A stretch of DNA of 64,000 nt from Vicugna vicugna. Taxonomy: Eukaryota. Where the stretch lies: the NCBI GenBank assembly GCA_013265495.1, contig MU057930.1:1690057-1754056 (forward strand), read 5' to 3'. The notes under the pieces are model-generated. The model had not been told where the DNA came from. It saw nothing but the letters and a program-made list of their open reading frames with translations, and made no database searches. Positions 7,015 through 40,874 of this stretch are shown in pieces. Position 1 is the first letter of the stretch. Every line of letters begins with the position of its first letter. Both the position numbers and the translations under genes were made by a program.

Positions 7015-7546
7015 CTAATTGTCCCAATTCTCCATGTAACAACTTTTATCTCACAAACTTTTGCTTAAACAAAGCAATTCTCCAGAGTCAAAAACATCTA
7101 GTCTCCCATACCCACACAGCGTGTGGAACACCTCTGGTCTGTTCCGTTTCGCCCATTACCCTTGTGTTAAATTATCGTTAACTTTGCAATGGCCAAAAAG
7201 CAAAAGCCGAACAGTCGTTGGAGTCCACCGTGGGGGAAAAGTACCGATTTTAAAATAATGACAATGTAGTAAAGATAAAATATTAACAAACACATGGAGT
7301 TAGCTGAATGCTCATTCAACAGATCCTTTATGGACATCTGGAATATTCCAGGCACTGGTTGTCCTTACAGTGAAGAGAAAGCCACGAACGGATACACTAG
7401 ATCTCTGACTGCCTGAAACTTCTATTCTAGTGTGTGTAGACTGACAATATACACATGAAAACCAAGTACTGCATGTTCTATGAGTTTCCTATTGCTGCTG
7501 TAAGAAATTAGCCCCAACCTAGTGGCTTCATACACACCTATTTCTT

Positions 7547-8019
7547 TTTTTTTTTTAATTGAGTTATAGTCAGTTTACAATGTTGTCTCAATTTCTGGTG
7601 CACAGCGCAATGCTTCAGTCATATATGAACATACATATATTCATTTTCACATTCTTTTTCATCATGAGTTACTATAACATCTTGAATATATTTCCCTGTG
7701 CTAGACAGTATAAACTTGTTTATCTATTGTATATATACCTGTCAGTATCTGCAAATCTCAGACTCCCAGTCTGTCCCTTCCCACCCCTCTCCCCAGTGGC
7801 AACCATAAGTCTGTGTTCTACGTCTGTGACTCTGTTTTTGTTTTATATATAGGTTCATTTGTCTATTTTTTTTTAGATTCCACATATAAGCGATCTCATA
7901 TGATATTTTTCTTTCTCTTTCTGGCTTACTTCACTTAGAATAACATTCTCCAGGGACATCCATGTTGCTGCAAATGGCATTATGTTGTCATTTTTTATGG
8001 CTGAATAGTATTCCACCAC
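7547..8019 (-). mobile_element. 5'-truncated LINE-1 inserted in MLT1
   Basis: T-tract then the L1 3' UTR in reverse. Perfect 15-bp TSD acacacctatttctt (7532-7546 / 8020-8034). Confidence 0.95.
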
Positions 8020-8330
8020 ACACACCTATTTCTTATCTTACAGTTTTGGACATCAGAAGTCTAAAACACTTCTAAAGGGATGTTTTCTTTCTGAACCGTA
8101 GTGGAGAACATTTTGTTTGCCTTTCCCAGCTTCTACGAGCCCTGGAGACTCCTTGTCTCCTGGACTCACTTTCATCTACCATGCCGCTTTCAACTGAATT
8201 CCGCTTTCAACTTCAGCTCCTCTCTGGGTCTGACCCTCTAGCCTTTCTCCTAGAAGGATTTTTTATTATTATTACATTGGGCTGACCTGAACACCTGAGG
8301 AAGCTCTCCTCAACTCAAGACCCTTATCTT

Positions 8331-8831
8331 TTTTTTATATGAAAAATACTTACTTATGTTTAGTAAGTCCTCTATTTTAAAGACAAAAATACACAATCCC
8401 AACACTTATTGAACCATTACTATGAAGCAAGCACTATGATAAGAAGTTTATCCATACTATCTCATTTAATCCTCAGAAACATCCTATGAAAGATGCATTG
8501 TTATCTTGATTACTACAAATGAGGAAACTAAGATGCAAAGAGGACCCTAAGGAAGTGACGTTGCTGGAATGTAAGTCTGGCTCTACCAACACCAAATTCT
8601 ATGTGTTTATCCATCATGTTTTGCTGAGTACAGTGGTTCTGTTCACAAGGATTTACAGGTTTATTCATTTGAGTTTGGTAGTATGAAGAAAGCTACTTTC
8701 TTTGGTTCACGGAATTATATATATTTTTTATTAGAGAATAAGACTGTATAATGCTTGTTTTGCCTTGTTTCCTTACAAAGGCAAAACCAAGTTTTGGTAA
8801 CTGCGTTTAGCCTGTTCCCAATTTCCACTGT
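8331..8831 (-). other. TSD-flanked poly(A)-tailed retrocopy of non-L1 sequence (orphan transduction or 3' UTR retrocopy)
   Basis: TSD aagacccttatctt (8317-8330) / aagaccctcatctt (8832-8845). T8 tract at 8329-8336. No L1 sequence inside; it contains a MIR. Confidence 0.75.
8400..8620 (-). mobile_element. MIR SINE (inside the retrocopy)
   Basis: 'aacacttattgaac...atctcatttaatcctca...acaaatgaggaaactaag' is the typical MIR core. Confidence 0.85.
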
Positions 8832-9461
8832 AAGACCCTCATCTTAATACATTGCAAAGTCCCTCTTCCCGTGTATGGTTGACCAGGAAACCCCTCTTAT
8901 TAATACACACCCCCAGGTTCTGGGGGTTAGGATGGGGACATACTTAGGGGGCTGTGATTCTGTCTACCCCAGGCTGCGATCCTGGTTGAGTTGGGTACAC
9001 CATCAACAGTCCTCTGACTACGGCAAACTGAATCCAACCCAGGTGGTTTCTTTGTTTTATTTTTTTTAAACTCTGAATGGTGGGCTTCTCCCATTCGACC
9101 ATCATGCAAGGAAAAGGTCAGTTAAACTTTTTCAGTCGATGACACAAAATAAGGATGCATATGAAAGCACGTCTGTGTTACAAAGCTCCACGTAAGTGTG
9201 AGTAGCTATTGTCATCTCTGTGCTGCAAAATACTTGTTAAGGGCTTGGGGGTGATGATGATTACAAATAAAAAGCCTATAGTATATCCTGTTTAATTTAC
9301 CTTCAGTCAAAGGCACAATCAGTACTTTCAAAGCAGGGAAAATTTACCCGAGGGCTGTAGTCTACAAGAGTCTAGGTTTCAAACCATACACAGTAAATTA
9401 AAAAGATCTTCTAGTTAAAAAAGAAATTATATATATATATATAAAATGATTTGAAAAATTT

Positions 9462-10475
9462 CATTATGTCATCATTTTTTATGGCTGAGTGGTATTCCAT
9501 TGTATAAATAAACCACCTCTTCTTTATCCAGTCATCTGTTGATGGACGTTTAGGCTGTTTCCGTGTCTTGGCTATTGTAAACAGTGCTGCTATGAACATT
9601 GGGGTGCAGGTGTCTTTTTAAAGTAGGATTCCTTCTGGATATACACCTAGGAGCTGGATTCCTGGGTCATATGGTAAGTCTATTCCTAGTCTTTTGAGGA
9701 ATCTCCACACTGTTTTCCACAGTGGCCGCACCAAACTGCATTCCCACCAGCAGTGGAGGAGGGTTCCCCTTTCTCCACAGCCTCTCCAGCATTTGTCATT
9801 TGTGGACCTTTGAATAACAGCCATTCTGACTGGTGTGAGGTGATGCCTCACTGTAGTTTTGATTTGCATTTCTCAGATAATTAGTGATATTGAGCATTTT
9901 TTCTTATGCCTATGGATCATTTGTGTGTCTTCCTTGGAGAATTGCTTGTTTAGGTCTTCTGCCCATTTTTTGGATTGTGCTCTTTGCTTTGTTCTTATCA
10001 CGTCATATGAGCTGTTTATATATTCTGGAGATCAAGCCCAAGATGGATGTCCCTGGAGAACATCATTCTAAGTGAAGTAAACCAGAAATAGAAAGAAAAA
10101 TACCATATGATTATCACTCATATGTGGAATCTAAAAAAAAAAAAAAGGACATTAATGAACTCATCTGCAAAACAGAAACAGACTCACAGACATAGAATAC
10201 AGACTTGTGGTTGCCAGTTGGGAGGAGGGTGGGAAGGGACAGACTGCGTGTTTGAGATTTGTAGATACTGTCAGGTATATATATATAGAATAGATAAACA
10301 AGTTTATACTGTCTAGCACAGGGAAATATATTCAAGATCTTGTAATAGTGAAAAAGAATTGAAAATGAATATATGTACATTCATGTATGACTGAAGCATT
10401 GTGCTGTACACCAGAAATTGACACAACATTGTAAACTGACTATAACTCAGTAAAAAAACCCCTCAAAACCAAAAA
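9462..10475 (+). mobile_element. 5'-inverted (twin-primed) LINE-1
   Basis: 9462-~10038 is minus-strand ORF2 (ORFs 9411-9599 and 9618-9869). About 10043-10458 is the plus-strand ORF2 end and 3' UTR, continuing from where the inverted piece stops. Confidence 0.9.
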
Positions 10476-11203
10476 ATAATTTCAAAAGATAATACATAGC
10501 ATAGAATTATTTCATTATCATCCCATCCATTTCAAGGTTGCCACACCTGACAGCCAAGGGCAGAAAATGCTAAAAATAGGAATTCAGTGGGAACCATGTT
10601 CAGTCCTCTTCCCAGTCTCCTGACCTGGAGCTGCAGCTCAAATCTGACTCTGCTACGTTGCAAAGGAACCCGGGAGGGAGGTGCCACTGAGTTCCTTCAG
10701 GTGCAGATTCTCTTTGTCTCCTCAGCACATTTAGCAAAGGCAGCTCTACCCAGGGGAGCTTGGACCATCCTCTCCCAGGTTGCATGATGCTTTGAGTCGG
10801 GGAGGGTGGGGCCATCTCAGAACGTGGGTCAGGGATACCCCTGCACAACCCTGAGTTCTCAAAGCAAAAATGGCAATGGGTGCACTCCATCCCAGACCAC
10901 AGGATCAGAATCTGATGCTCCAATCCTGGGGTAGATGGGAAAATCCAAAAGGGGTCCCCAGTCAGAGGGGCGCTGCTCCCCACAGTGGCACTGGGCATCT
11001 GCAGCTCTCCTGGGGTTGGTCTTTTAAGAATCAACTTAGCACCGCCAAGGTAGGATTCTTCCAGGTTCAAGAGTGTCCACAGTCATAACCTGAGAGGCAG
11101 AGTCTCTGCTCAGGGAGGTCATTGCCAACTTTGGTATATGATTCTTTTTTTCCCCCCGGTGCTTAGTGGCAGTTTGTTTGTTGTTTATTCATTCATTCAT
11201 TAC

Positions 11204-29679: not shown

Positions 29680-30200
29680 CAAACCAACACCATCTATTTC
29701 GGGTTTTTGTTACGACAGCATCTCACTTTTGCTTTCAATTTCTTTTCTGGTTTAGCTAATGCTGTGTAACAAATGAGCCTGAAACCTGAGGCTCTAAACA
29801 ACAGTCTGTGATTCTCTCTCATGATTCTGTGGATTGACTGGGTTCAACTGGCAAGTTCTCTCTTGACATCTTTTGGGTTCAGCTCAGCTAGATGTTAGGG
29901 ATGGAACCATTTGAGGGCTCAAGCAGGTGGGCTGCCCCGGGTGGTGCACTTCCATGGTTGGTAGTGAATGCTGCTGTCCACGGTGTGCAGCCGAGGTTCC
30001 TGAAGGGAGCAAGACACTGGGCCTCCCTGATTTGGTGTCTGGGTTCCAGGAGTGATGGTCCCAAGGGCCAGGGTTCTTAGTGGTCTGAACAGAAACCTCA
30101 TGGCTTCTTATTATCCAGCCCTGGAAGTCCCGGCACCTTGCTTCAAGAAACTTCTACTAGTCAAGAAAGCCACCCAGATCCAAACAGACTTCACCTCCAA
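29680..30200 (-). mobile_element. Old MaLR LTR (MLT1-type) with adjacent internal remnant
   Basis: 'agctaatgctgtgtaacaaa...ctctcatgattctgtggattgactggg'. Confidence 0.65.
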
Positions 30201-36400: not shown

Positions 36401-36900
36401 TCAATCATTTGTAACGGACATCCCACAACTACCTTATACCTCCCCAAGCATGCCTCTAGAATCCCGGTTTTCAACCAAGGCCAGTTACTGATTTAAAATG
36501 CAGTCCAGTCTATAACCACCTGCCTTTGAATGTGCAAATAAATAAGATACTAACACGTGCTTTAGGACACCCTCTGTCTGGAATGGAGTCTGCTTTCAAG
36601 TGTTGCTTCTGATGGCCATTTTGAGCACCGTACTTGCAGGGAGAAACCACAGGGAAGAGGAAGTCCCAGGTTCGGGACTTACGGGATTTTGCACACAAGT
36701 ATGGTTCACTCATTCTTATATTTGACATGCATCAGATGAGGACACCACCTTTCGGTTGATACAGTCAGGATCAAAGCCCTTTAAGAAGTCAAGTATTGGC
36801 TGAGCCAGTGGAAAAGAATGGTAATTTCTATGCACAAACGGAGGAAAGAAAATTTTAGGCTCTGGCTTCATATCTTGGAGGAAAAAAGAGTTAATAATAA

Positions 36901-36902
<2 letters not shown>

Positions 36903-36960
<58 letters not shown>

Positions 36961-37273
36961 CCTACCTACCTATCTATCCATCCAACCATCCATCCATCCA
37001 ACCATCCATCTTATCTATCTATCTATCTATGTCTATTCATCCATCCATCCATCTTCTCTATGTATCCATCTGGCCATCCGTCTTATCTATCTATCCATCC
37101 ATCCAACTATCCATCCATCCAATCTATCCATCCATCCATCTCTGTCCATCCATCCATCCATCTTATCTATCTATCTATATCTATTCATCCATCCATCTAA
37201 CCATCCATCTTATCTATCTATCCATCCAGCCAGCCATCTCTATCTATGTATCCATCCATCCAACCATCCATCT

Positions 37274-37318
<45 letters not shown>

Positions 37319-37367
37319 CATCCATCCATCTCTATCCATCCATCCATCTATCCATCCATCTACCTAT
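36903..37367. repeat. (TCTA)n/(TCCA)n compound microsatellite
   Basis: Pure TCTA runs at both ends with a mixed TCCA core. Confidence 0.97.
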
Positions 37368-38259: not shown

Positions 38260-39370
38260 CTATCTGTTTACCCATCTACCCACCTATCCACTGATCCATA
38301 CAGCCATCCATCTATTCATTCTTCCATCCACCCATCCACACATCCATCCATCGATGTACCCACCTAGCTACCCATCCACACATCCATCCACCCACCCATC
38401 CATCTACCCATGCACCCAACCATCATCCACCCACCCACCCACCCACCCATCCATCCAAATATCCATTCATGTACCCACCTACCCACACATCCACACATTC
38501 ATCCATTCATCCATCCATCCACTCATCCACCCACGCACCCAACCATCATCCACCCACCCACTCATCCATCCATCCATCTGTCCACATGTCCATCCACCCA
38601 ACCATCCATCCACCCATGCACCCATCCACACATCCATCCATCCATTCACCCACCCACCCGTCATCCACTCATCCATCCATCCACCCATCCACCCACCCAT
38701 ACACCCAACCATCCACCCACCCATACACCCATCCACCCATCCGTCATCCATCCATCCACCCAGCCATACACCCACCCATCCATGTACCCACCTACCCATC
38801 CATCCACACATCCATCCATCCATCCATCCACCCACCCACCCATCCACCCACGCACCCAACCATCATCCACCCACCCACTCATCCATCCATCCATAAATCC
38901 ATCCACATGTCCATCCACACAACCATCCAACCACCCATGCACCCATCCACACATCCATCCATCCATTCACCCACCCATGCACCCTCCCATCATCCATCCA
39001 TTCACCCACCCATACACCCACCCATCCATGTACCCACCTACCCACCCATCCACACATCCATCCATCCATCCATCCATCCACCTACGCACCCAACCATCAT
39101 CCACCCACCCACCCATCCATCCTTCCATCAGTCCATCCACATGTCCATCCACCCAACCATCCATCCACCACACACCCATCCACACATTCATCCACCCACC
39201 CACACACCCACCCATCATCCATCCACCCACCCATCCACACATCCATCCATCCACCAACCCGTCCACCCAACCATCCATCTACACGTCCACACACCCACTC
39301 ACTCATTCACACATCCATCCATCTATCCATCCACCTACCCACACATCCACTCATCTACTTACCCATCCCT
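38260..39370. repeat. (CCAT/CCAC)n array with higher-order units
   Basis: About 1.1 kb, almost G-free on the + strand, with recurring landmark words. Confidence 0.97.
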
Positions 39371-40874
39371 CTATATTTCTTTCTTTCAATCTATTATTAA
39401 ATGGAGGCAGTAGAGATTGAGGAAGAAAATGTACAATGACCAGAGCTGCAGAATGATGAACACTGCATTTTCACAGCCTCCTGCTTAAGTATCATGAAGT
39501 GGTTAAAAGTTTTTTTTTTTCTTTTAAATTTTTTTTCTGCTATGAGGGGTCTAAGGAGCTGTGCTAAGAGCAAGAAGGCCATGGCTTCTGCAGATCACAC
39601 TGAATGCCTAACATATCATTAGCACAACCTTAAACATGGTTTTCTAAAATAATTAGGTCTCCTAAATTTGTAATGGAACATGAGTATCTGTACCATTCTG
39701 GCTCACATTCAACACAGCTGTCTTAGCTTTTCCCTAAACTATCCCTCCACATAATTTTATTCCTCCTCTCACTCTGTCATGATTTATTTAAGATTTGCCT
39801 GCAGCCAATGCAGGCAGCATTTCCCGATCTAGAAAGGAGATGGTGGAAAGCCAAGATGTAGAGTACAGTGCAATTTTATGTCAGCTGGCTGAGTTTCATT
39901 CTGTGCAGCCCCTGGGACAGCCCCGGGTCAAACTGTGAACTCAGTGATGCAAAGCTCCCTAAGCAAATTTGTTTATGCATAATTCCTAGGTTCATTTTGG
40001 TTTGTAACAGGACCTCCCCAAGTGAAGGAGGTGATGAAAAGCTAATTCTCCCTTTCCTATACGTCTTGAACCCAAATCTGTTCCACATACAGCGACCTAC
40101 CAGATGCCCACAGCAGACACAAAAACCAGTCGATGTGAAATGCCTTACAAACTTGTAAGACATCCAAGCTCTACCCTGTTCCTCCTCTAACTTTCACCTC
40201 TCTGAGGACAGCTCCAAGGAGTGGTCTTTTCACTTTACAGTAAGCATCAGGAAAAGAGGAATTCTCCTTCATCAGTGAATTTGCTCAGCACTAGTGACGT
40301 TTCAAGTCACTTGGGTGGGACCATGTCAAAAATACAGACAGCTCTGGATTTGTACACCTTGACCATGCAAGTGGAGATACTGTCCGTGAAGTATTTCAGC
40401 CAATCGATCTATCTTGAGTATCTTTAATCTCACCATTGAGAGTGTTCTGCACACCCATACAGTTATCCTGACTTCACAAGCAATTCATTTCACGAATGCA
40501 GTGCGTCTCTGACATGCTAATTACACGCAGCTTAGCTGACTGCCAGGTGGACAGCTGAAACACTACAGTGTGAGTTTTCTGATGTAGGGCTATCTGATCA
40601 CTCCTGGAGAGTGGATATGCCATTAAAGCAATTGCATCCTCCTTATCATAACTAGCACATGCATAACATCATACTGTCTATGCTGTTCTTTTAAATTACC
40701 TCAACTTCCCTTTCAGTTGTAGAGATACGTCGATTTCACATCATAGAAACTTCAAGACATAAGGCAAGGGTAGAAAAAGAAATCTGCCAGGTCCTCTTTT
40801 AAAACCTAAATATGAAATATTTTAGGGGTGTGGGGCTCAAGACCCTTAAGTAATGTTTTTTTGGGGTGTCTGGT

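Follow-up and report, generated by a model that had tools for sequence, protein, structure and literature searches.

The window, a stretch of 64,000 nt of mammalian DNA with abundant L1 3′ ends, LTRs and tRNA-headed SINEs (self-BLAST, Rfam), holds at 8331-8831 a real, old and apparently fixed retro-insertion, the source of which was demonstrated for 357 of the 495 bases of its body. According to our analysis, the insert was very probably copied from RNA by the L1 machinery, and it probably represents the 5′-truncated, L1-made copy of the end of a polyadenylated host RNA. It belongs to a well-known class that has already been described, and is an ordinary genomic fossil. No genes were identified in the 64-kb window, and there is no sign of a function for the insert.

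Junctions and setting of the insert

The insert sits between two copies of a direct repeat that differ at one of 14 positions (Table 1). The repeat cannot be extended on either side, and a search of both strands of the 64 kb found no further such place. When 8331-9400 was shuffled 3000 times, such a copy arose only twice, with an analytic expectation of 3e-4, and 4 of the 151 T6+ runs in the window, the insert's own T run included, had such a flanking repeat within 2 kb. The 14-bp duplication with 13/14 identity that had been proposed from the letters alone (hereafter, the sequence-only reading) was thus borne out, and so was the proposed minus-strand target TT/AAGA, since the nick context on the + strand is TCTT/AA, an L1-endonuclease-type site. 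TCTT/AA is among the sites of validated new mouse L1 insertions, which have duplications of 13-19 nt (PMC9719517). The body of the insert (8337-8831) is 495 bp long with a GC content of 34%, compared to 44% and 51% in the flanks, and self-BLAST gave no match between the insert and the window's many L1 copies, in agreement with the AT-rich body of about 495 bp without L1 described earlier. Self-BLAST also found no second copy of the insert within the 64-kb window. The longest stop-free stretch in six frames was 58 codons, and the fold at neither end of the insert went beyond that of shuffled sequences (z -1.6 and -0.2).

Table 1. Positions of the insert, its parts and its surroundings in the window, with the contigs of the second locus.
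Feature	Position	Strand	Remarks
Host solo LTR, 3′ piece (ends approximate)	7473-7546	-	7474-7527 aligns to repeat at 29741-29793, z 7.8, 100 shuffles
5′-truncated L1 3′ end in same LTR	7547-8019	-	own 15/15 duplication 7532-7546 / 8020-8034, T12 run
Host LTR, middle piece, with left duplication copy at its end	8035-8330	-	marginal alignment to LTR 25809-25539, z 3.6
Target-site duplication, left copy	8317-8330	.	13/14 identical to 8832-8845
Poly(A) tail remnant	8331-8336	-	4-6 T absent from second locus
Insert part matched to second locus	8337-8710	-	8354-8710 aligned; 8337-8349 by loose end
ACTAAA, candidate variant poly(A) signal (weak)	8359-8364	-	22 nt from 8337
Decayed MIR-like SINE, passenger (ends approximate)	8402-8620	-	pile-up 8426-8499; z 4.7 to window 55669-55554
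Stretch without listed insert/second-locus difference	8572-8604	.	33 bp; contigs break here
5′ end of insert	8711-8831	-	121 bases; no long second-locus piece among those listed
Target-site duplication, right copy	8832-8845	.	13/14 identical to 8317-8330
Host LTR, 5′ piece (end approximate)	8846-8971	-	other-locus contigs on 8905-8941 in X1, X16, X20
Second-locus contigs, X1	records 1 and 7		3724 and 1028 bp
Second-locus contigs, X16	records 9 and 15		2668 and 857 bp

A run of eight T is present at 8329-8336, and the sequence-only reading took all of it as a minus-strand poly(A). The T run is real, but two T belong to the duplication, and the orthologue in sequencing run X20 has C at 8336, like the second locus described below, while 8335 also fits the second locus (by eye), so that only 4-6 of the eight T are non-templated. 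Homology between insert and source stops at about 8335-8337. Pure A/T runs at all 13 L1 ends examined in the window were 4-12 nt long, and thus the short tail of the insert is normal in this window. However, 4-6 non-templated T is far below the tails of 10-40 A carried by young human cases (PMC5110952), which counts against an L1-made copy of a host RNA. The ACTAAA that had been claimed as a poly(A) signal does lie at the claimed distance from the tail, but it is weak evidence, because 221 of 465 36-nt segments of the insert contain at least one of 13 variant signal hexamers and ACTAAA alone is therefore near chance and adds little. ACTAAA is a minor variant poly(A) signal, accounting for 670 of the 14,740 sites in a human collection (PMC6612895). 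TGTA was found 53 nt from the end of the insert's body. Two AATAAA are located 323 and 390 nt upstream and, like the non-canonical ACTAAA, count against the host-RNA reading.

The insert interrupts a solo LTR, which we take to be of the MaLR/MLT1 type, and contains a SINE with approximate ends that is presumably MIR. What the analysis shows of the host LTR and the MIR-like part is the behaviour of dispersed repeats, along with weak alignments to further copies within the window. The internal LTR and MIR copies are mostly too diverged for family names or junction continuity, with scores near the shuffled null, and none of the six internal references gave a z above 3 with the LTR piece that follows the insert. 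Rfam detected only three tRNA-like SINE heads in the window, all outside the insert locus. The truncated L1 at 7547-8019 is a second minus-strand insertion in the host LTR, about 300 bp from the insert. A hotspot of Alu insertion has been described at MLT1C positions 183-186 (Levy et al., PMC2836564). Within the LTR 5′ piece, about 25 bp at 8880-8904 partly repeat 8836-8851, and loose ends of other LTR copies jump from the equivalent of ~8880 straight to 8905; 8880-8904 looks like a local duplication.

Source locus, MIR passenger and age

A run search with 8331-8831 (46 sampled words) listed 24 runs. Between 0.67 and 0.98 of these words are present in 18 of them, which are DNA or untyped and come from seven studies and five organism labels; no RNA run was listed as containing the insert. 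Contigs of four runs (X1, X16, X19 and X20) were aligned on 8040-9400 at 80% likeness, and the records listed, on which the figures given here are based, comprise 25 of the 65 pieces, 15 of the 47 loose ends and 40 of the 80 rows of differences. X1 is a DNA run, possibly from the window's own source, and X16 is a DNA run with another organism label and study, while X19 and X20 are RNA only by guess. Because records can be dropped by a filter, no weight is given to gaps in the cover of the window's own locus by X1 and X16.

A second locus was seen in both DNA runs, as single-copy contigs matching 8354-8710. It differs from the window at 29 of 248 positions over 8354-8601 and at 18 of 136 over 8575-8710 with no gaps, which gives a divergence of 47/357 or 13.2% (95% interval 9.8-17.1%; JC 14.5%), and the second-locus letters listed agree between X1 and X16. 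Beyond 8354, a loose end in X1 matches 8337-8349 by eye in 11 of the 13 letters once it is offset by 4 nt. Past this point the same loose end, the only one listed for the source at this junction, has neither a T run nor any likeness to the duplication. The second locus that had been predicted was therefore found in X1 and X16, without duplication or tail in the X1 loose end, and its presence in both DNA runs excludes the case of no paralogous source locus. At 8572-8604, single contigs reach only about half of the implied depth (25.2 versus 14.2 and 10.4 in X1; 14.5 versus 7.4-9.9 in X16), which fits exactly two copies. Among the pieces listed for X19 and X20 there was no long second-locus piece, and this carries no meaning for expression. 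A 21-mer common to insert and source was absent from the viral and prokaryote collections scanned. An exact scan with it gave one metagenome match, whose likeness is limited to about 23-34 bases and which we attribute to chance.

The second locus includes the MIR-like part, on which short pieces from other loci stack in both DNA runs, plus unique DNA on both its sides. Because the match spans these unique flanks, MIR arrived as cargo, and the proposal that MIR and its flanks came into the LTR by copying is upheld. MIR has been placed among the oldest elements and MLT1B at an intermediate age (Giordano et al. 2007, PMC1914374). Under nested-element chronology, in which newer elements enter older ones (PMC1914374; PMC2836564), MIR inside MLT1 seems out of order; however, the MIR of the insert was copied with its unique flanks and without transposition of its own, so that the age conflict is removed and the rule stays intact. 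The insert illustrates how an old SINE can come to lie in a younger LTR with no breach of nested-element dating, and is of little importance alone.

The filled site was observed at both ends of the insert in more distant runs. X19 covers 8549-8960 through the 5′ junction with 25 differences, and X20 covers 8303-8719 through the 3′ junction with 28 differences and 25 gap bases. X19 and X20 are 6-7% diverged from the window, compared to 1.7% for X16. At 33 listed differences between window and source, X20 has the window's letter at 22, the source's at 9 and a third letter at 2, as expected with the second locus as outgroup, which indicates that the insertion predates the split from the X20 lineage. 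A filled site in lineages 6-7% diverged makes the insertion old and probably fixed. No joint across the insert, and thus neither an empty site nor presence/absence polymorphism, was found in any of the four runs aligned, in which contigs drop rare alleles.

The ratio of the source distance to that of the 6-7% lineages was 2.1, which places the insertion at about twice the age of the split from those lineages, given equal rates. Judging by distance, X19 and X20 may be Old World camels, and a range of 11-25 million years has been published for the split of Old World and New World camelids (PMC4884201). If they are, the insertion would be 34-42 million years old with a split at 16-20 million years and equal rates, and 45-56 million years old if the source evolved half as fast under the same split assumption. 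PMC8605555 added nothing on L1 ages. The insert could be a presence/absence marker for the camelid stem.

A bias in base composition was also observed between the two copies. Over 8354-8710, the window has G/C and the source A/T at 24 listed sites, and the reverse holds at 7 (p 0.003). Of the changes assigned to the window lineage, 8 of 9 were from A/T to G/C (33 of 47 differences listed). This suggests GC-biased gene conversion in the region of the insert, and the pair of copy and source offers, on a small scale, a natural test of AT-to-GC substitution bias in the region.

Template, mechanism and rival explanations

The duplication, the endonuclease-type site, the non-templated T and the intact donor together match the insert to the class 1 templated insertions (class 1 TSIs), which have been attributed to L1 ORF2p acting on non-L1 RNA (Onozawa and Aplan 2016, PMC5110952). 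In the course of events that we propose, an RNA transcribed from the source locus in the germline or the early embryo would have been cleaved and tailed near 8335-8337. ORF2p would then have nicked the + strand of the already old LTR at TCTT/AA, with the T-rich end at the nick priming on the RNA tail. Synthesis of cDNA would have halted after about 500 nt, repair would have yielded the 14-bp duplication, and the tail may later have shrunk to a few bases.

Which RNA was copied is judged mainly from human base rates. In 1,019 human genomes, 216 of 292 polymorphic processed pseudogenes were mono-exonic, compared to 48 orphan transductions (Schloissnig et al. 2025, PMC12350158), and on this ratio we consider the likely template to be a host transcript, be it a 3′ UTR, a long non-coding RNA or a cryptic transcript, rather than L1 read-through. 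An orphan L1 3′ transduction, in which a source L1 reads through its own poly(A) site, is tailed downstream and leaves a copy truncated before the L1, would produce junction hallmarks identical to those of the host-RNA reading, and the missing match to the window's L1 copies is what it would also leave. Furthermore, the distance of 13% between source and copy falls within the 9-18% found between the L1 at 7547-8019 and the eight copies closest to it in the window, meaning that L1 was active at that age. Against it stand the lower human frequency and the X1 source contig, which extends 892 bases past 8710 at single-copy depth and hints weakly that no young high-copy L1 lies directly upstream. 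We regard this origin as unlikely.

Break repair at the DNA level, of the class 2 TSI type, would make the direct repeat and the T run coincidental. Such repair would sit well with the very short non-templated run, the weak signal and the 121 bp at the 5′ end that are left unexplained, but class 2 events come without duplications or tails (PMC5110952), and here the 14-bp duplication, the endonuclease-type site and the non-templated T coincide at one junction, which makes break repair very unlikely. There may also have been no insertion, with the MIR-bearing DNA in place and the LTR pieces inserted separately, as the lack of an empty site in the four aligned runs would allow, or the insert may be a member of a new multi-copy repeat family. 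The second locus with different flanking DNA, a single long second-locus match per DNA run among the pieces listed and the two-copy implied depth speak against these readings, and we give both together hardly any credence.

The 5′ end of the insert was considered separately. The source is collinear and gap-free over 8354-8710 and the match stops at 8710, before an AT-rich run; no joint was listed at this position. The AT-rich run just past 8710 has indels in X16 and X19, and the lack of a match for 8711-8831 is most likely due to an indel or insertion that arose later in one of the copies; possible alternatives are a template switch, a 5′ inversion or an exon located upstream. A further, rather doubtful reading takes 8711-8831 from a separate exon or locus, so that the insert would be what is left of a germline transcript that ended in MIR, was spliced or chimeric, and is unannotated or lost in camelids; if this were true, a non-canonical poly(A) site would have been kept in the insert for tens of millions of years. 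The bin depths of both DNA runs imply a piece of ~31-43 bp near 8760-8790, which was compatible with chance and was set aside. An imperfect 13-bp inverted repeat is located at 8745-8792 in this unmatched part (fold z -1.6).

Relation to described insertions and other features of the window

Like class 1 TSIs, the insert consists of sequence other than L1, copied from an intact donor far away. Class 1 TSIs are flanked by duplications of 5 bp or more and have a TTTT/A-like site and a tail, and the insert correspondingly has 14 bp, TCTT/AA and 4-6 T; their cryptic signal lies 10-30 nt before the tail, where the insert has the weak candidate ACTAAA at 22 nt (PMC5110952). In contrast, the described cases are polymorphic human events with 10-40 A, whereas the insert is 13% diverged from its donor and apparently fixed. 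Like mono-exonic processed pseudogenes (PMC12350158), the insert is tailed, aligns to one other locus and has no retroelement body, although that study defines processed pseudogenes by an alignment of at least 75% to annotated exons, compared to 357 of 495 bases (72%) aligned to the source in our case, exon status aside. With the orphan L1 3′ transductions of the same study it shares the tail, the lack of an L1 body and a source elsewhere in the genome, while assignment to that class requires that a source L1 lie upstream or that the source be non-exonic. The locus was absent from the camelid retrocopy literature by title or start of abstract, a narrow check. Once the source is placed, the insert could record one ancient poly(A) site.

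Several other features of the window were observed. The first part (1-2600) is CpG-rich and repeat-poor, with AT-rich motifs resembling conserved non-coding elements. Two L1 pieces in opposite orientation (9430-10040 and 10039-10490) meet at about 10039 in the arrangement of a 5′-inverted L1 insertion. Long degenerate (ATCT)/(ATCC)/(ACCC) tandem arrays occupy 36900-37360 and 38270-39390, the second of which has a strong C skew.
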